Source: an uncultured Gammaproteobacteria bacterium | GTDB taxonomy: Bacteria > Patescibacteriota > Microgenomatia > Levybacterales > UBA12049 | Length of the DNA: 64,000 bases | NCBI GenBank assembly: GCA_964637955.1 | Contig: CAZWXQ010000002.1 | Span: 199,782-263,781 of the forward strand | Direction: 5' to 3' | Shown here: in pieces, positions 3,152 through 55,220 of the stretch | How the letters are laid out: each line of letters starts with the position of its first letter | How positions within the stretch are numbered: position 1 is the first letter of the stretch | Notes under the pieces: model-generated | What the model was told of the DNA's origin: nothing | The model's input: the letters and a program-made list of their open reading frames with translations, nothing else | The model's database searches: none | Made by a program: the position numbers and the translations under genes

Positions 3152-3463
3152 TTAAGCCTCTTTAGGCTCTGCAGCTGCTGGAAGACCAAGTCCTGATCTT
3201 AAGTCTTCTGGGATCTCAAAAGCATCAGCTATACTTCCTAGCAATCGATCAACTGCTTTGTTTAGATCTGAACGATCTACAAAGAGCGTCTGATGTTTTA
3301 CCGCTACTGCATCAACTAAAATGTCGGGAATACCTGCCGCTCTAAGTCTTTCTTCAGAGCTAGCTGCTTCGAAGCGTATGTCCGATCTTCCAAATGCAGT
3401 ACTTGACCGTCCGCGAGAAACGGCTTGAGCATCTTCGAGCAATGATCTTTGTCTTTCACTCAT
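3152..3463 (-). CDS. Small hypothetical protein (~103 aa) with strong Shine-Dalgarno site; member of the leader-attenuator gene set
   Basis: ORF 3152..3472. ATG at 3463 is preceded by AGAAGGAGGTGATAATT. Protein is R/E/A-rich (MSERQRSLLEDAQAVSRGRS...). No family recognised. Confidence 0.55.
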   Translation of the reverse strand: MSERQRSLLEDAQAVSRGRSSTAFGRSDIRFEAASSEERLRAAGIPDILVDAVAVKHQTLFVDRSDLNKAVDRLLGSIADAFEIPEDLRSGLGLPAAAEPKEA

Positions 3464-3485
3464 AATTATCACCTCCTTCTAAAAC

Positions 3486-3510
3486 CACAAAAAAACTCCC
3501 TTACGGGAGT
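3486..3510 (-). terminator. Intrinsic terminator/attenuator hairpin ACUCCC-GUAA-GGGAGU plus U7 in the leader of the 3152..3463 gene
   Basis: Plus strand reads aaaaaaactcccttacgggagt. The minus-strand RNA has the hairpin followed by UUUUUUUGUGG, then the SD and ATG 25 nt later. Confidence 0.55.
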
Positions 3511-3615
3511 CAGGTTTTCTAAAGCAAAAAATTAATTTAAATCAAAAATACGCTAGCTCCCAAGAGAGTTAGCTCGCAGCATTTTTGATTTGATAGTCTT
3601 CTTAACATTAGCTTT

Positions 3616-3624
3616 ATAATACCA
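3616..3624 (-). promoter_or_regulatory. Extended -10 promoter (TGGTATTAT) upstream of the leader of the 3152..3463 gene
   Basis: Minus-strand TGGTATTAT lies ~150 nt upstream of the start codon. An upstream GGGAG box (CUCUCUUGGGAGCU) could pair with the terminator 5-prime arm. Confidence 0.3.
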
Positions 3625-8930: not shown

Positions 8931-9998
8931 ATGGAAATTCAGGAATTATTAAATCTTACAGTTAAAAATAAAGCATCGGATTTACATCTTTTGGTTGGTA
9001 TTCCTCCTACAATTAGAGTTGATGGGGTCCTTAATTCCCTTCAAAACTACCCTGTTGTTTCACCGCAGGCTATGGAGCAAATGATTTTTTCACTTCTAAA
9101 ACCAGCTCAAAAAGATGCGCTTCTTGCAAACAAAGAGCTTGATTTCTCTTTTGGAATTGGCGGTGGACCATATGGAGATATGGGTCGTTTCAGAGTGAAT
9201 ATTTATTACCAAAGAGGTTATATGTCAGGAGCATTCAGGTATCTTGAGCCGAAAATTAGAACCATTGAAGAGTTAAAGCTTCCACAAGTTGCTCACAATT
9301 TTGCCGCCCTTAGACAAGGGTTCGTTTTAGTAACCGGTCCTACAGGACACGGAAAATCGACCACTCTTGCAGCAATCATAAATGAAATAAATCTTTCCAA
9401 ACCTGCACATATCTTAACAATCGAGGATCCGATCGAATATATTTATCCTCAGGGAAAAAGTATAATTTCGCAGCGTGAAATGGGGGAAGATTCACACTCT
9501 TGGAACTATGCGCTTCGCGCAGCTCTTCGTGAAGATCCTGATGTAGTTTTAATCGGAGAAATGAGAGATCCTGAGACTATCTCTTCAGCTATAACTATTG
9601 CAGAAACTGGCCATTTGGTGTTCTCTACTCTTCACACGAATTCTGCTTCTCAAACTATTGATCGTATTATAGATTCATTTCCTGCGAACCAGCAGCCGCA
9701 AATTAGAACTCAACTTGCAGGAACTTTAAAAGGAATTATTTCTCAAAGACTTCTTCCTCAGATAAATGGAGGAAGAATACCAGCCGTAGAAGTGCTTATT
9801 GGAAATAATGCAGTTGCTACCAACATCCGAGAAGGAAAAACTCATCTTATTGATTCTATTATTGAAACATCACAAGATGTCGGAATGATAAGTCTTGAGT
9901 CTACTTTGTCCACTATGGTTTCAGCTGGAAGTATTAGCCTTGAGACTGCAAAGAGTTATGCATCTCATCCAGAAGATCTGCTAAGAATGGTAGCATAG
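8931..9998 (+). CDS. pilT: Twitching motility retraction ATPase PilT
   Basis: 355 aa. GPTGHGKSTT and ETGHLVFSTLHT motifs. Confidence 0.9.
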   Translation: MEIQELLNLTVKNKASDLHLLVGIPPTIRVDGVLNSLQNYPVVSPQAMEQMIFSLLKPAQKDALLANKELDFSFGIGGGPYGDMGRFRVNIYYQRGYMSGAFRYLEPKIRTIEELKLPQVAHNFAALRQGFVLVTGPTGHGKSTTLAAIINEINLSKPAHILTIEDPIEYIYPQGKSIISQREMGEDSHSWNYALRAALREDPDVVLIGEMRDPETISSAITIAETGHLVFSTLHTNSASQTIDRIIDSFPANQQPQIRTQLAGTLKGIISQRLLPQINGGRIPAVEVLIGNNAVATNIREGKTHLIDSIIETSQDVGMISLESTLSTMVSAGSISLETAKSYASHPEDLLRMVA

Positions 9999-40178: not shown

Positions 40179-40403
40179 TTAAATCTCGGGATATAAAGTC
40201 TTAATGACATGATCCGGTGCATCAGCCACTAATTTTACCAATGTTTTAATTGATTCAGCGTCAGGTTGACCACCCTGTATTTTTCCCTTCACTACTCTAT
40301 TATGCGCTACCGCTATAGTAAGTGCGTCAGGTTTTTGTTCACCAGCCTCATTTATAATAATATCAGTTTTATCTATAGTTCCAATACTACTTTCTCTTTC
40401 CAT
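40179..40403 (-). CDS. Small hypothetical protein (~74 aa) with strong SD; leader-attenuator gene set
   Basis: AAAGGAGGTGATTATT then ATG at 40403. Protein MERESSIGTIDKTD... Confidence 0.5.
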   Translation of the reverse strand: MERESSIGTIDKTDIIINEAGEQKPDALTIAVAHNRVVKGKIQGGQPDAESIKTLVKLVADAPDHVIKTLYPEI

Positions 40404-40585
40404 AATAATCACCTCCTTTCTTTTAATTTATTTGCTTTTCCGTTAGGAAAAGTTTAGTAAAATCTTATGCTATCTTTAGGTCGAATATATTTAAGTCTCT
40501 TATTGAGTACCGAATGGTACGAGATTTAGAGTTAATTATCCTAACTAATGACGGTTAGGACTTTAGTCACTTTACTTTTTTGACC

Positions 40586-40610
40586 ACAAAAAACCTCCCA
40601 TTCGGGAGGT
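40586..40610 (-). terminator. Leader terminator/attenuator ACCUCCC-GAAU-GGGAGGU plus U6, ~180 nt upstream of the 40403 start
   Basis: Plus strand reads acaaaaaacctcccattcgggaggt. An upstream P1 hairpin ACUUCC-UUUAAC-GGGAGGU could pair alternatively with the terminator 5-prime arm. Confidence 0.55.
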
Positions 40611-40695
40611 CAGTGACCTGTTATTTTACAACAGCACCTTACCTCCCGTTAAAGGAAGTAAAGTAAAAATATACTGCTGTTCTAATCATGGATTT

Positions 40696-40724
40696 ATAAT
40701 AGCAAAATTATCATAAACTTTCAA
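40696..40724 (-). promoter_or_regulatory. Promoter TTGAAA-17-TATTAT for the 40403 leader
   Basis: Minus-strand TTGAAAgtttatgataattttgcTATTAT. Confidence 0.45.
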
Positions 40725-44953: not shown

Positions 44954-45007
44954 TAATATATCTTAGGCAAAACTTCCCGGAAATGTCAAAGTTTGAGGTA
45001 GTTTGTG

Positions 45008-45081
45008 TGGGCCCGACAGGATTCGAACCTGTGACCTCAGCAATGTCAATGCTGCGCTCTAACCAACTGAGCTACGAGCCC
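45008..45081 (-). tRNA. tRNA-Val (anticodon GAC)
   Basis: GGGCTCGTAGCTCAGTTGGTTAGAGCGCAGCATTGACATTGCTGAGGTCACAGGTTCGAATCCTGTCGGGCCCA. Cloverleaf verified by hand. CCA not encoded. Confidence 0.85.
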
Positions 45082-45125
45082 GTGCTGGTTAATTTTAACA
45101 AAACCAGCCTGCGCTTACAAACCCT

Positions 45126-45377
45126 TTAGCTTATAGCACCTGTATTGTCCACTAAAACATTTTCTATAACAGGAGAGGTTGCTACTTCAATTACAGGCTG
45201 AGCAGCAGTTAATGCTCTCTCTGCTCGTTTTTGCGCTGACAATTGTATAATTTCTAGTCTTGAAGCAGGATACGATTCAATTGCTTCACCAGAAACTAAA
45301 TCTTCAACTAGTACATGGGTAATGCCCCCAATTCTAGCTAGTCTTGCTTTTTCCACATAATGTGCTTTATCTATCAT
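45126..45377 (-). CDS. Small hypothetical protein (83 aa) with strong SD; own promoter plus attenuator
   Basis: AGAGGTGATTAATT then ATG. Protein MIDKAHYVEKARLARIGGITHVLV... Confidence 0.5.
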   Translation of the reverse strand: MIDKAHYVEKARLARIGGITHVLVEDLVSGEAIESYPASRLEIIQLSAQKRAERALTAAQPVIEVATSPVIENVLVDNTGAIS

Positions 45378-45428
45378 AATTAATCACCTCTATTCTCCGC
45401 CATGATTTATTGAAGGCTGATTTTTCCA

Positions 45429-45454
45429 CAAAAAAACCGCCCATAAGGCGGTTC
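45429..45454 (-). terminator. Leader terminator/attenuator AACCGCC-UUAUG-GGCGGUU plus U7
   Basis: Plus strand reads cacaaaaaaaccgcccataaggcggtt. Upstream box AACGGCGGUU is complementary to the terminator 5-prime arm. Enclosing stem GUUCUUGC..GCAAGAAC. Confidence 0.55.
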
Positions 45455-45529
45455 TTGCTCATGCAAATAAACCGCCGTTAGGAGGTCATGCAAGAACACA
45501 TAAATACGTTATTTTTCATAGGTTAAGAC

Positions 45530-45558
45530 ATGATATAAAATTGGCTTAATTAAGTCAA
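45530..45558 (-). promoter_or_regulatory. Promoter TTGACT-17-TATCAT for the 45377 leader
   Basis: Minus-strand TTGACTtaattaagccaattttaTATCAT. Confidence 0.45.
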
Positions 45559-45566
45559 TAAATAAA

Positions 45567-45836
45567 TTAGTCTCCTTGGGCTTCCATAATTGCTACTGAT
45601 AATATGTCTGCATGAGCCATAGAATCAAAGATAGTTTGCTGACCAATCTCCTCTGTAATTTCAGAAGCCAATCCTTGCTTGGCTCTTTGTTCGTGCCATC
45701 TTCTATTTGAATCAACAATATTTTGAACAACCATGCCTTCCATACAGTCCCGAATTATTGCAGCGTCTAGTCTGCGATGCGTTTCTCTGGTCTCTGCTAT
45801 TCGTATTACATCTATTTGTTCTGTTTCAATTGTCAT
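45567..45836 (-). CDS. Small hypothetical protein (89 aa) with strong SD
   Basis: AAAGGAGGTGATTAATT then ATG. Protein MTIETEQIDVIRIAETRETHRRLDAA... Confidence 0.5.
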   Translation of the reverse strand: MTIETEQIDVIRIAETRETHRRLDAAIIRDCMEGMVVQNIVDSNRRWHEQRAKQGLASEITEEIGQQTIFDSMAHADILSVAIMEAQGD

Positions 45837-45864
45837 AATTAATCACCTCCTTTCAAGTAAAGTT

Positions 45865-46122
45865 TTATGCATCAGGTCTTGCATTTGCTGCAGTTTTTTC
45901 TGCAATCTGAGCTAATTCTTCCCCTATATTAGCTATGTTTCCTTTCTGTGATGCTATATAAGTTGCCTGCGGTCTTTCAAGAACAGTAGCTTCGCCTGTA
46001 TCGAAAATTGAAACATATCCAGGAGGCGTAACTCTATCTTCCGGATTTATTCCAGGAACATGTCCAGTATAAACCGGTATTTCTCTTGAGCCCTCAACTA
46101 TTATTAATTCGTTATCTATCAT
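45865..46122 (-). CDS. Small hypothetical protein (85 aa) with strong SD (start MIDNELII)
   Basis: AAAGGAGGTGAAAAGAAT then ATG at 46122. Confidence 0.5.
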   Translation of the reverse strand: MIDNELIIVEGSREIPVYTGHVPGINPEDRVTPPGYVSIFDTGEATVLERPQATYIASQKGNIANIGEELAQIAEKTAANARPDA

Positions 46123-46183
46123 ATTCTTTTCACCTCCTTTCATTCATATAATTAAAATTAGTACATAAATTTTCATTATTCGT

Positions 46184-46621
46184 TTAGGTCATATTTGTAA
46201 GATGATGTATATCTCTAGCTCTGTATTTAGCCCTTATTCCTTTTGGAGTTAGTCTCTGTCCATTTGAATAAAGTTCAACTATTTCTCCTTCTATAGTTCC
46301 TTGAAATATAGAGACCGATCCATCTCCCATTTTGGCAAGTGCCTGTAATTCTCTAACTATTTCACCTGCTGTAAAATGACCTGCTGTAAAATTACTGGTT
46401 TCTTCATTTGTTTGTTGTATTATTCCTAGAACACAAGCGCCTGGATTTATCACCGCTTTTACTAATGTTCCTCTTTGAATGTTCCTAATTACTTCTCCTT
46501 GTGGAATATCTAATGGTTTAGTGTCAGACTCGCTGGGTATAGCGAGAAAAGCACTTGAAAATGCCGTTTCGCTTTCCCCATCAATTAATTGTGAATCAAC
46601 TTCGCTCATATTTTTAGCCAT
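46184..46621 (-). CDS. Hypothetical protein (145 aa); first gene of an SD-bearing operon
   Basis: ATG lies immediately after the terminator U7 (GGGAGGUUUUUUUAUG). Contains internal FTAGHFTAG. Confidence 0.5.
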   Translation of the reverse strand: MAKNMSEVDSQLIDGESETAFSSAFLAIPSESDTKPLDIPQGEVIRNIQRGTLVKAVINPGACVLGIIQQTNEETSNFTAGHFTAGEIVRELQALAKMGDGSVSIFQGTIEGEIVELYSNGQRLTPKGIRAKYRARDIHHLTNMT

Positions 46622-46646
46622 AAAAAAACCTCCCTTGTGGGGAGGT
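46622..46646 (-). terminator. Leader terminator/attenuator ACCUCCC-CACAA-GGGAGGU plus U7, directly abutting the start codon
   Basis: Plus strand reads taaaaaaacctcccttgtggggaggt. The only SD for the gene (GGGAGG) is in the hairpin 3-prime arm. An upstream UUACGGGGAAC box could pair with UCCCC. Confidence 0.55.
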
Positions 46647-46741
46647 CTAAGTTTCTGCTTCTGGCCTTATTACGCCACAAACTTAGTTCCCCGTAAGGAG
46701 TTAAGAAGGACGAGAATAAGGTTTCTATTTAACATAGAGTG

Positions 46742-46771
46742 AGTATATCAAAGTGGAATTTTTTCTGTCAA
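46742..46771 (-). promoter_or_regulatory. Promoter TTGACA-18-TATACT for the 46621 operon leader
   Basis: Minus-strand cTTGACAgaaaaaattccactttgaTATACT. Confidence 0.5.
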
Positions 46772-46818
46772 GAAGAAAAAATAAGATGCAGAAACAAGTT
46801 TAGCATGATTGTTTTACT

Positions 46819-47469
46819 TTATCCAACTGAAGTAGCTACCTGACGTTCATTGTTCATAGTAAATGAAGTTCCATGTTTTTTGGCCATAGATTTATACTGA
46901 CGTGCTTGTTTTTTGCCATTAATTGCACTGAACCATGCCAAAGAATCATCAACGCTCATTCGAAGCTCATGAATGAAGCTAAGCATTTTATCTAAGAAGT
47001 TAAGGTGATAAATTCCAACCTGTTCTCCAGTTTGTTCCATAGCAATAACTTCTACTTTTTGCTTTAACTCTCCTGAGCTTTCAGTTAGTTGTTTAATTTC
47101 AATCATTATTTGATGAAGTCTAACTTCAACCTCTTGGGAATGCTTCGCATCTGCTCTTTCTCCCGCATGCGTGATTTCACGCATATATTTTTGCCCTGCT
47201 TCTGTAACTGCATGTGCTTTTTCATGGAGACTGCCTAGGTCAAACTCATGGCCCTCTTCTAAAACTCCATGACTCGAGCTATGACCGCCTTCATTGTGGT
47301 CTTCCTGTGGAATTAGAAGTTGGTTCCATGTATCATGGGCTACGCCGTCTGCATTTACTTTAACTTGATCAACTGTGGATCTTACTACGCCGGTTAATGA
47401 CTCTAGGACGTTGTCATTCGTATAGTGTTTTTCCTTCTTTTTGCTGCTAAGAAGCTTAGGTAGATTCAT
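46819..47469 (-). CDS. Hypothetical His-rich protein (216 aa)
   Basis: ORF only. Confidence 0.4.
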   Translation of the reverse strand: MNLPKLLSSKKKEKHYTNDNVLESLTGVVRSTVDQVKVNADGVAHDTWNQLLIPQEDHNEGGHSSSHGVLEEGHEFDLGSLHEKAHAVTEAGQKYMREITHAGERADAKHSQEVEVRLHQIMIEIKQLTESSGELKQKVEVIAMEQTGEQVGIYHLNFLDKMLSFIHELRMSVDDSLAWFSAINGKKQARQYKSMAKKHGTSFTMNNERQVATSVG

Positions 47470-49148: not shown

Positions 49149-49697
49149 TTATAAAGCTAGGGATAGAGTGGTTTTAGATTTTTTTACTCTGTAATCTTCA
49201 ATTTGATTCATGAAATAAGTAACTCTAACTGCCCATGTGGGTGAAGCAGCATATTTAGGACCAATTAGGTATGGATCAGAATACTGACCTTCAGCTAAAT
49301 AGCCTTCATGTATTCCCTTAGAGATAGTTCCAATTCCCTCATCCCATGAATTAAATCTTTTAACGTTGTCTCCGTATATTCCCCAACCCCATCCATTATA
49401 AGAGTTATATGGAATATGTTTTCCGAAAGATGATTCAAGCCCAGCAATTGAAGCTACAAGCCTCCAGTCAAGGTTATATTTGTCAGCATTTTCCACGAAA
49501 TCCTGCGCATATGGCGCAAGCGGAGAATTTTTTTCTTCAAGATATTCTCTTAATATAGCAATACGATTATCTTCATTTTTAAGCGCGATAGCTGAGTTAA
49601 GTGACGCAGATGTCCTCGATGCTTCATAAGCAAAGGTATCTTGCGTACTTATAAAAAGTAATAAAATAACAGTAATGATAATAAGGAATTTTTTCAT
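49149..49697 (-). CDS. Secreted peptidoglycan hydrolase, GH73 glucosaminidase-like domain (paralog 1)
   Basis: Signal peptide. PYAQDFVENADKYNLDWRLVASIAGLESSFGK resembles the FlgJ/AcmA glucosaminidase core (A.LESGWG). Confidence 0.45.
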   Translation of the reverse strand: MKKFLIIITVILLLFISTQDTFAYEASRTSASLNSAIALKNEDNRIAILREYLEEKNSPLAPYAQDFVENADKYNLDWRLVASIAGLESSFGKHIPYNSYNGWGWGIYGDNVKRFNSWDEGIGTISKGIHEGYLAEGQYSDPYLIGPKYAASPTWAVRVTYFMNQIEDYRVKKSKTTLSLAL

Positions 49698-49807
49698 AGA
49701 TTTTTTATTTCTACTTCAAGTGTTTTTGAAGTATTAAATTTTATGGTTCACTAAATTGAGTATTTAGTTCAGAGTCCTACTTCGCTAATGCTTGTAAGAT
49801 TTAAACC

Positions 49808-49852
49808 ATAAAAAAATCCTAACGTGAGCATTTGGAAAGGCACACCTTAGGA
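49808..49852 (-). terminator. Intrinsic terminator (AUCCUAA..UUAGGAU long hairpin plus U7) downstream of 49972..50541
   Basis: Plus strand reads aaaaaaatcctaacgtgagcatttggaaaggcacaccttaggat. Confidence 0.5.
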
Positions 49853-49862
49853 TCTAAAAAGA

Positions 49863-49891
49863 ATTATAACATGGACTATAGGGTTTGTCAA
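49863..49891 (-). promoter_or_regulatory. Perfect consensus sigma70 promoter TTGACA-17-TATAAT located immediately upstream of the terminator hairpin
   Basis: -35 at plus 49886-49891 (tgtcaa). -10 at plus 49863-49868 (attata). Confidence 0.5.
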
Positions 49892-49971
49892 GTACCAACT
49901 ATAGGTCACATGTTGTGACATCTATTTATTTAGCCTTGAAATTGAGGGTTTTAAAGTATACTTGAGGCTAA

Positions 49972-54681: not shown

Positions 54682-55101
54682 TTAATTTCCAGAATCTACT
54701 TTGACCTGAATTTTTTTAGGTTGAGATTTGGGAGATTTTGCAAAAGAAATTTTCATTACACCATGCTTATAATTTGCAGATGGTTCCTGATTTTGATCTA
54801 TTTCTCCTGGAACTGCAACCCTATACGAGAATGATCTTGTAGCTTCTCTATAATATTTTCTTGATTTGTCTTTTTCTTCCTCTTTTGTTTCGCCTTTTAT
54901 CCATAGATTTCCATCGTGGAAAGTTATATCTATATTTTTTGGATCGATTCCTGGAACTGAAGCCTCAACATAGATATGAGTATCATCTTCTGAAACTGAA
55001 AGTCCACCTGTGGTGTTAGAGATTGTTGGAATCAGATCTTCATCCTCGTTCCAGATAGATGGGAAATTAAATAACCTACTTGGAACTAAATCATATGACA
55101 T
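54682..55101 (-). CDS. Small heat-shock protein, Hsp20/alpha-crystallin family
   Basis: Alpha-crystallin domain (GVMKISFAK, IPGIDPKNIDITFHDGNLWIKGE). ATG at 55101 preceded by GAAAGGAGGTGAATTAT. Confidence 0.75.
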   Translation of the reverse strand: MSYDLVPSRLFNFPSIWNEDEDLIPTISNTTGGLSVSEDDTHIYVEASVPGIDPKNIDITFHDGNLWIKGETKEEEKDKSRKYYREATRSFSYRVAVPGEIDQNQEPSANYKHGVMKISFAKSPKSQPKKIQVKVDSGN

Positions 55102-55129
55102 ATAATTCACCTCCTTTCTTGTTCTAGTA

Positions 55130-55166
55130 TTAGCACTAATATACTACGAGTGCTAACTCTTGTCAA
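55130..55166 (-). promoter_or_regulatory. CIRCE-like HrcA operator (TTAGCACT-N10/9-GAGTGCTAA) overlapping a TTGACA-17-TATATT promoter of the hsp20 gene
   Basis: Plus strand reads ttagcactaatatactacgagtgctaactcttgtcaa. CIRCE consensus is TTAGCACTC-N9-GAGTGCTAA. Confidence 0.65.
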
Positions 55167-55220
55167 GAGATAAATTTATATGAGTTATTAAGATTAAAAT
55201 AAAATTTAAATAATGAAATT

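Follow-up and report, generated by a model that had tools for sequence, protein, structure and literature searches.

Four small genes and two long leaders beside tRNA-Val

The 64-kb stretch of contig CAZWXQ010000002.1 analysed here (the window) carries, between a DUF5660 gene and tRNA-Val(GAC), four minus-strand open reading frames (ORFs) for small proteins of 145, 85, 89 and 83 amino acids (p145, p85, p89 and p83), together with two promoter-led leaders, each ending in a terminator hairpin; these leaders and the genes behind them (their cargo) are the subject of this report. A first reading of the bare DNA letters (the original prediction) had pointed out the locus, and with minor inaccuracies its features were located where it had put them (Table 1). 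The first three genes form operon 1 behind leader 1, and p83 is the cargo of leader 2; of the four leaders that had been implied, two were found in the region, p85 and p89 having none of their own. Likewise, a canonical Shine-Dalgarno (SD) site had been ascribed to all four genes, but the exact AAAGGAGGTGATTAATT-ATG occurs only at p89, with AAAGGAGGTGAAAAGAAT-ATG at p85 and ATAGAGGTGATTAATT-ATG at p83, while the SD of p145 is, as described, an arm of the terminator itself (GGGAGG-U7-AUG). The tRNA-Val gene has a promoter-like site of its own at 45120-45092.

Each leader holds a short reading frame and predicted alternative hairpins

The two near-consensus promoters that had been proposed turned out, in a promoter scan, to be the best two sigma-70 matches in 4 kb. 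Promoter 2 begins 9 nt past the p89 stop codon, so that no terminator lies between operon 1 and leader 2, and terminator 2 probably ends the transcripts of operon 1 as well. A 20-bp near-perfect palindrome, ATTGACTTAATTAAGCCAAT (45540-45559), covers the -35 box of promoter 2; it might be an operator, and inspection by eye shows it to be only partly conserved in L130, the closest relative.

Downstream of each promoter we found a short ORF that had been overlooked and that starts where the leaderless genes of the window start, the ATG of leader ORF 1 (46735) lying 6 nt and that of leader ORF 2 (45519) 10 nt past the -10 box. The putative regulatory codons are L6-L11 (LILVLL), i.e. codons for leucine and other branched-chain amino acids (BCAA), in leader ORF 1, and two Cys codons in leader ORF 2. 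The stop codon UAA of leader ORF 2 is the 'UAA' of the box consensus UAACGG(G/C)(A/G)GG that had been suggested for both leaders; leader 2 fits this consensus, whereas leader 1 reads UUACGGGGAA.

The GC-rich terminator hairpins were confirmed, with stems of 7-9 bp followed by U7, and a perfect stem with six to nine T and an immediate RTG occurs at only four sites in the whole window, two of which are these terminators. In both leaders the box is complementary to the 5′ arm of the terminator, as had been noticed, and in leader 1 the same strand, AAACUUAGACCUCCCC, is the antiterminator partner of GGGGAACUAAGUUU and the 5′ arm of terminator 1. Because the AUG at 46621 takes the 3′ arm GGGAGG of terminator 1 as its SD, transcriptional read-through and translation initiation are linked in leader 1. 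In leader 2 a second short ORF opens directly after the U-tract; its stop codon overlaps the p83 start region, and this stretch, together with the SD GAGGUGA (45390-45384), is kept in L130.

Table 1. Positions (window coordinates) and composition of the leaders, their parts and the adjoining genes
Feature	Position	Strand	Sequence or parts	Remark
Promoter 1	46771-46742	minus	TTGACA (46771-46766)-18-TATACT (46747-46742)	11/12; extended TG in spacer
Leader ORF 1	46670-46735	minus	MLNRNLILVLLNSLRGTKFVA + stop	Leu/BCAA-rich, apparently leaderless
Leader 1, segment 1	46697-46705	minus	CUUAACUCC	5′ strand of anti-antiterminator hairpin P1, inside leader ORF
Leader 1, segment 2 (box)	46679-46692	minus	GGGGAACUAAGUUU	pairs with segment 1 or segment 3
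Leader 1, segments 3+4	46622-46654	minus	AAACUUAGACCUCCCC (46654-46639), loop, GGGAGGU, U7 (46628-46622)	
Terminator 1	46648-46622	minus	AGACCUCCC-CACAA-GGGAGGUUU + U7	
p145	46184-46621	minus		cargo gene 1 of operon 1, 145 amino acids
p85	45865-46122	minus	SD AAAGGAGGTGA	second gene of operon 1
p89	45567-45836	minus	SD AAAGGAGGTGATTAATT	third gene of operon 1
Promoter 2	45558-45530	minus	TTGACT-17-TATCAT	10/12
Leader ORF 2	45478-45519	minus	MKNNVFMCSCMTS + stop	Cys8 and Cys10 putative regulatory codons
Leader 2, hairpin P1	45497-45490, 45458-45451	minus	GUUCUUGC with GCAAGAAC	encloses box
Leader 2, box	45470-45476	minus	GGCGGUU	exact copy of terminator 2 3′ arm; pairs with AACCGCC
Terminator 2	45453-45430	minus	AACCGCC-UUAUG-GGCGGUU + U7	
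Second short ORF, leader 2	45367-45429	minus	MEKSAFNKSWRRIEVINYDR	GUG right after U7; 20 codons
p83	45126-45377	minus		cargo of leader 2; orphan, zero Cys
tRNA-Val(GAC)	45007-45081	minus		conserved downstream boundary of variable island
Leader 3 (W3)	40179-40724	minus	promoter, then leader ORF MIRTAVYFYFTSFNGR (40689-40639)	peptide ..VYFYFTSFNGR
W3 box and terminator	40647-40642, 40611-40588	minus	GGGAGG; GACCUCCC-GAAU-GGGAGGUU + U6	then GUG
Leader 4 (W4)	3152-3621	minus	leader ORF MLRRLSNQKCCELTLLGASVFLI (3608-3537)	peptide ..KCCEL..
W4 box and terminator	3561-3556, 3511-3489	minus	GGGAGC; GACUCCC-GUAA-GGGAGUU + U7	then GUG

Predicted folds place the putative regulatory codons at the edge of a permissive stall window

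Folding reproduced all three helices, i.e. hairpin P1 (segments 1:2), the antiterminator (2:3) and the terminator (3:4), in line with the mutually exclusive structures that had been proposed. Ribosome-masked folding, in which a 29-nt stretch (footprint -15 to +13 nt) was kept unpaired as a mimic of the ribosome, was applied to leaders 1 and 2 (W1 and W2) and to two further leaders of the window near 40.7 kb and 3.6 kb (W3 and W4). In all four, the terminator formed both without a ribosome and with a ribosome at the stop codon. With nascent RNA lacking the 3′ arm, the antiterminator formed only when the A site stood at or before L10/L11 (W1) or C10/M11 (W2), with the same boundary at F10 in W3 and C11/E12 in W4, and it was gone once the masked ribosome had moved one or two codons further. 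Thus, in each leader the run of Leu or aromatic codons, or the set of Cys codons, lies exactly where the permissive stall window ends on its 3′ side, and this placement is the geometry of trp/phe/leu-type attenuation. At full length, W2-W4 displayed the switch between antiterminator and terminator even at equilibrium.

Across the compared sequences the box and both terminator arms change together, falling into the classes GGGAGG/CCUCCC, GGCGGUU/AACCGCC, GGGCGG/CCGCCC, GGAGAGU/AACUCUCC and GGGAG/CUCCC. By permuting the terminator arms among the sites, we found that terminators of other than the GGAGG type were accompanied by an upstream copy of their own 3′ arm at 4 sites versus 0.66 expected (fraction 0.0015). 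The pairing potential of P1 in 11 aromatic-type leaders amounted to 88.6% of cells, compared with 44-52% in slid controls.

Two further leaders in a mostly leaderless window

As had been noted, the other genes of the window mostly lack an SD, and most first genes have their ATG 5-9 nt past a TATAAT-like box. The motif AGGAGGTGA precedes only seven genes in the window. Genes with an SD are the ones that follow a long 5′ leader, so the strong SDs of the cargo genes can be ascribed to their position behind such leaders. The cargo of W3 is an SD-led 74-residue orphan (40403-40179) with zero Phe and zero Trp, and that of W4 an SD-led orphan of 103 residues (3463-3152) with zero Cys.

The only other SD-led gene of the window, identified from sequence as Hsp20-like (54682-55170, minus strand; AAAGGAGGTGAATTAT-ATG), has a TTGACA promoter and a 5′ untranslated region of ∼35 nt with no attenuator. 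At 49800-49895 on the minus strand, a TTGACA-17-TATAAT promoter stands directly before an imperfect hairpin of ∼45 nt, U7 and AUGG, with no leader ORF, ∼110 nt upstream of the ORF at 49149-49697; this element could be a small RNA or an attenuator of a different kind. The gene content of the window includes type IV pilus genes, DUF5660 and DUF5665, and biosynthetic genes were not seen in it; together with the groundwater provenance of the relatives, this content makes a member of the candidate phyla radiation probable.

Leaders are kept in relatives while the cargo is exchanged

The gene order tRNA-Leu, tig, DUF5660, variable genes, tRNA-Val, DUF5665 and thrS is kept in five relatives (L002, L003, L124, L130 and L132), and two partial contigs (L126 and L131) share the DUF5660-proximal end only. 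Each variable gene block in these relatives sits behind such a leader, and the orthologous leaders (from L130, L131, L132, L124 and L126) retain the Leu or Cys codons, the stop codon, the box and the terminator. The leader 1 orthologs of L130, L131, L132 and L124 encode ..L-I-(L/I)-V-L-L-N-S-L-R-G-(A/T)-K.. and a stop, with synonymous Leu changes (TTA/CTC/CTT) at a loop position; those of leader 2 read M-C-(S/A)-C-(M/L)-T-(S/G)-stop in L130, L124 and L131, and ..TCQMLCIA in L132. Before the p145 ortholog of L126, the leader MKSLFTVILLIKP is followed by the box GGGCGG and a terminator CCGCCC/GGGCGG. The leaders share 71-83% nucleotide identity with those of the relatives, and leader 2 is 83% identical to its L124 counterpart over 98 nt, above the flanking coding DNA.

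The comparison with L130, in which the DUF5660 protein is 88% identical and housekeeping DNA about 78-85% identical, delimits the exchange: homology runs through leader 1, ends at 46606 and resumes at the p89 SD, then runs through leader 2 and its SD, ends at 45370 and resumes at tRNA-Val. With homology breaking at the start of the cargo, both leaders are kept and the cargo behind each of them differs. All five cargos of leader 2 orthologs have zero Cys, and across six genomes the cargo is drawn from a small mosaic pool of families.

The junctions of SD and start codon are repeated within the locus, 45363-45395 resembling 45822-45854 over 33 nt (79% identity) and TATGATAGATAA occurring exactly twice, at 45367-45378 and 46112-46123; as a speculation, these repeats would offer a recombination substrate for cassette exchange. 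An origin of the island as a prophage or integrative element at tRNA-Val was considered but found no support, for there is no integrase, no att-like repeat and no deviant GC content at third codon positions (GC3), and a scan of viral contigs for the leader pattern gave no match; the island also lies 5′ of the tRNA gene. A scan of genome contigs with the DUF5660 protein returned two distant relatives only.

In L003 a similar leader (9288-9420; peptide MKFVKNTRCTKIS, box UAGGAGG, terminator AGCCUCCC..GGGAGG-U7-AUG) precedes a gene resembling LmbE/PIG-L-type deacetylases, located between DUF5665 and thrS. Both L002 (CAYRYY010000005) and L003 (CAYOTA010000002) are titled 'uncultured Gammaproteobacteria' in GenBank and have ∼38% GC, as does the window; given this GC content and the synteny shared with the window, the label looks doubtful for both.

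Similar leaders in metagenome contigs carry codon runs that match the downstream gene

A search of metagenome contigs for one exact pattern (GGGAGG, 15-35 nt, CCTCCC, 3-6 nt, GGGAGGTTTTTT) yielded at least 120 stretches; the counts below refer to the matches listed. They include genuine gammaproteobacterial pheA leaders as well as many low-GC contigs, and about fifty of the leaders precede small SD-led proteins without a family. Among these small-cargo leaders, 35 of 50 had a -35/-10 pair whose end lies 3-11 nt upstream of the leader ATG (versus 4.5% of random positions), and 67% had at least three identical residues among the five codons located 14-28 nt before the box, compared with 8% for the preceding and 5% for the following five codons.

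Where the downstream gene could be assigned, the runs correspond to it: LLLL precedes LeuRS, FFF precedes PheRS-alpha and CM-PDT (PheA), and QIQQNN precedes GatC; TTTT runs precede a class II aminoacyl-tRNA synthetase (aaRS; read as ThrRS) and an amino-acid kinase (read as aspartokinase), a PALP enzyme (read as CysK) follows CCC, and a fusion of HAD and 2-hydroxyacid dehydrogenase (read as SerB/SerA-like) follows SSSS. Both the common position of the runs and their agreement with the gene downstream speak for ribosome-mediated attenuation. The module was seen before thrS, leuS, pheS and gatC in eight low-GC contigs (L015, L049, L062, L103, L122, L030, L064 and L017), which suggests that aaRS genes of these lineages may be under leader-peptide attenuation.

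The cargo is depleted in the residue in which its leader is rich, the mean frequency being 0.030 versus 0.048 in permuted pairs (n = 30; none of 20,000 permutations as low). Such cognate depletion is typical of enzymes that are induced by starvation for their own product, and on this ground the orphans appear to be real proteins made in shortage of the sensed amino acid. In addition, 42 of 52 small-cargo leaders have a start codon 0-1 nt past the U-tract (GUG in 17, AUG in 17 and UUG in 8), at a distance of 7-8 nt from the 3′ arm GGGAGG; that all three bacterial start codons occur there argues for translation initiation rather than an RNA motif.

A probable ribosome-mediated switch adapted to leaderless translation

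We consider it likely, at a probability of roughly 80%, that both leaders are ribosome-mediated (leader-peptide) transcription attenuators of the trp/phe/leu/thr type, adapted to mostly leaderless translation. The RNA from each promoter would begin at or near the AUG of a leader ORF of 13-21 codons. With ample charged tRNA, the ribosome would reach the stop codon in or beside the box and cover the box, and the GC hairpin with its U7 would end transcription; without a ribosome, P1 would sequester the box, leading to termination likewise. A stall at the Leu/Ile/Val codons of leader 1 or the Cys codons of leader 2 would melt P1 and leave the box free to pair with the 5′ arm of the terminator, so that no terminator forms and RNA polymerase continues into the cargo. 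The 3′ arm freed in this way (GGGAGG or GGCGG) would then serve as SD for the start codon right after the U-tract, which in leader 1 would be that of p145, or of a mini-ORF fused in frame to p145, and in leader 2 that of the 20-codon ORF ending on the p83 start. Since the 3′ arm would act as an SD only when freed, leaky read-through with the hairpin closed would be poorly translated, and the switch would presumably gain a translational layer. Leu or BCAA shortage would thereby turn on p145, p85 and p89, and Cys shortage p83, all of them small proteins that evolve fast.

Several points weigh against this explanation. That transcription starts at these promoters and stops at the U-tracts, and that the leader ORFs are translated, we infer from the DNA. 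The critical codons of leader 1 are mixed (L-I-L-V-L-L), those for Cys in leader 2 are just two and non-adjacent, p145 is not Leu-poor (6.9% Leu), and, in contrast to all classical attenuators, nothing visibly connects the cargo with amino-acid metabolism. In folding, the ribosome footprint is an assumption, the antiterminator of W1 is never the equilibrium minimum at full length and appears only in the co-transcriptional (truncated) model, and pair counting in the 11 aromatic-type leaders gave no significant covariation on P1. Finally, the metagenome scan selected for GGGAGG/CCUCCC/GGGAGG and so gives no independent information at those positions.

The mixed hydrophobic codons of leader 1 and the two Cys codons of leader 2 would also suit leader ORFs that sense no particular amino acid and respond to general translation stress or nascent-peptide arrest (ermCL/cat-like, or an elongation-rate sensor), for the geometry needs just a ribosome stalling within a defined window; antibiotic-arrested leader peptides have been discussed as a precedent (10.1101/834739), and the peptide C-termini are conserved, e.g. 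..FTSxNGR* and ..MTS*. These C-termini, however, are encoded by the very RNA strands that form P1 and the box and can do without a peptide-level explanation, and the homopolymeric runs are of many residues (T, F, C, S, L, M, V, K, I and Q/N) and track known downstream genes, while the depletion of the cargo in the cognate residue is specific to an amino-acid logic. We therefore regard a general stress sensor as unlikely.

The original prediction had favoured a riboswitch or a tRNA- or protein-mediated sensor; its attenuation layout downstream of real promoters holds, but the sensor would instead be the ribosome. The layout is indeed shared with riboswitch expression platforms, including an antiterminator/terminator alternative, and the P1 hairpins fold well (z = -2.7 for leader 1), as a ligand-, tRNA- or protein-sensing switch (riboswitch, T-box or TRAP/PyrR-like) with incidental short ORFs would have it. 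Yet Rfam gave no riboswitch or T-box match in the whole window at gathering threshold, nor at E≤10 in 45000-46900, where besides Phe_leader only chance-level small RNA matches appeared. Phe_leader (RF01859) is itself a leader-peptide attenuator family; it matched with 33.5 bits at 46620-46736 and 19.2 bits at 45427-45520 (gathering score 55), a weak match attributable to the pattern GGGAGG/CCUCCC/GGGAGG-U6, which is also built into gammaproteobacterial pheA leaders. Moreover, W1-W4 have no aptamer-like conserved core in common beyond box and terminator, conservation falls on the leader ORF with its stop codon and its codons for Leu or Cys, and runs of one amino acid that match downstream aaRS or biosynthesis genes are not expected of a ligand sensor, all of which makes such a switch very improbable.

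That the hairpins are ordinary terminators of the upstream DUF5660 gene and of the p145-p85-p89 operon, with chance promoter-like sites and short ORFs, is hardly tenable: terminator 2 is the sole terminator past p89 and very likely ends operon 1, and AT-rich DNA often contains promoter-like hexamers (15 found versus 10.5 expected), but the two best-matching promoters lie upstream of the hairpins, the whole module of promoter, ORF, box and terminator is kept in relatives with different flanking cargo and recurs as W3 and W4, and the box co-varies with the terminator.

Comparison with known attenuation systems

Like the classical attenuators (trpL, pheL/pheM, leuL, thrL and hisL; Phe_leader), the leaders join a short ORF containing a stretch of codons for a single amino acid to three overlapping helices (1:2, 2:3 and 3:4, the last an intrinsic terminator with a U-tract), and their regulatory codons are so positioned that a stalled ribosome would free segment 2. 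They differ in that the leader ORF is apparently leaderless, with its ATG 6-10 nt past the -10 box and no SD, in that a second start codon stands right after the U-tract with the terminator arm as its SD, and in that the cargo consists of exchanged orphan small proteins, with no biosynthesis, aaRS or transport genes. Leader-peptide attenuators outside Proteobacteria, e.g. in Actinobacteria, have reportedly been described by comparative genomics, from the same combination of a leader ORF with regulatory codons and alternative hairpins; a class with orphan cargo is apparently outside those descriptions. T-boxes also read aminoacylation status and control terminator read-through upstream of aaRS and amino-acid genes, but the leaders described here have no specifier loop or T-box sequence, and sensing would proceed via the translating ribosome, not by direct tRNA binding.

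The closest specific precedent is the set of mycobacterial polycysteine leaderless short ORFs, the 'Cys ribulon', at which pausing relieves an RNA structure that blocks downstream genes (Canestrari et al., 10.1101/834739). Its criteria are at least two consecutive Cys codons, a position upstream of Cys-related genes and sequestration of the ribosome-binding site; the case studied is translational, with the ribosome-binding site sequestered and no intrinsic terminator (10.1101/834739). Common to both systems are leaderless short ORFs with Cys codons at several loci, here W2 (C-S-C) and W4 (CC), and the relief of a blocking RNA structure by a paused ribosome would be common to them too, whereas in the window a terminator with U7 is joined to SD sequestration, several amino acids are addressed (Leu/BCAA, Cys and aromatic), and nothing visibly connects the cargo with Cys metabolism. 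Literature searches found no paper that joins leader-peptide attenuation with the candidate phyla radiation (CPR) or Patescibacteria.

The cargo proteins

Compared with the window background, the four proteins are, as had been claimed, rich in Arg (6.0% versus 4.0%), Glu (9.7% versus 7.5%) and Gln (5.2% versus 3.2%) and poor in Lys (3.0% versus 7.6%), but the supposed depletion of Ile was not seen; Ala is also raised (10.7% versus 6.4%), and Phe (1.7% versus 4.3%), Tyr (1.7% versus 3.6%) and Leu (5.7% versus 9.0%) are lowered. Their GC3 is low, as for native genes. Pfam and PHROGs scans assigned none of them to a family, and the possibility that they are paralogs of one another was rejected on comparison.

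A k-mer-indexed protein search with p145 and p83 returned self matches only, and an exhaustive HMMER search detected 10 relatives of p145; in the resulting family of 11 sequences Cys63, His82, Glu91 and Asp137 are invariant. The AlphaFold2 (AF2) model of p145 has a predicted local distance difference test score (pLDDT) of 84.9, and its top Foldseek match is NTAN1 (E 0.06, probability 0.91), while neither a Pfam CheD match nor, with the p145 profile in a PDB sequence search, anything above chance level was obtained. These data weakly suggest a CheD/NTAN1-like fold, which would make p145 a candidate Cys-His amidohydrolase. A second in-frame ATG at 46609 may be the actual start of p145, since L130 holds, at the place of the first ATG right after the U-tract, a 4-codon UUG ORF whose stop overlaps the cargo ATG. 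One homolog (P0007; L128/L129, 249-2614), a neighbour of rpmG and of a large serine recombinase, lacks an attenuator; thus, the p145 family is not always attenuator-controlled and may move.

For p85, no relative was found among the compared loci, large protein databases having been left out of this search; the p89 ortholog in L130 is 59% identical and 102 amino acids long. p83 is predicted with low confidence to be helical (AF2 without alignment gave pLDDT 64, and the model was not used). A fold search against viral structures gave no match.

Possible implications for starvation responses in uncultured cells

The cis-regulatory logic described here is textbook attenuation, but its setting is not: leaderless leader peptides in a mostly leaderless genome, several amino-acid specificities within one 64-kb window, and outputs that are orphan small proteins, poor in the sensed residue and swapped among close relatives exactly at the junction of leader and cargo. 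Tentatively, and at rather less than even odds, amino-acid-specific leaderless attenuators might be conserved 'expression sockets' for exchangeable small starvation-induced proteins, in a lineage that is probably one of Patescibacteria/CPR auxotrophs. If this is true, each socket protein could be synthesised without the missing amino acid, and some of them would be enzymes or effectors; p145, for instance, might slow translation by deamidating a protein target, might set off proteolysis, or might act on the host. Such a starvation response would be unlike, in kind, both biosynthetic induction and the stringent response. If the organism is an amino-acid-auxotrophic CPR episymbiont, the cassettes would mark the genes that are switched on when a given amino acid runs out, which would provide a sequence-defined handle on the physiology of uncultured cells that is otherwise almost inaccessible. 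As an annotation rule, the run in the leader peptide would predict the inducing condition for dozens of small genes now called 'hypothetical'.

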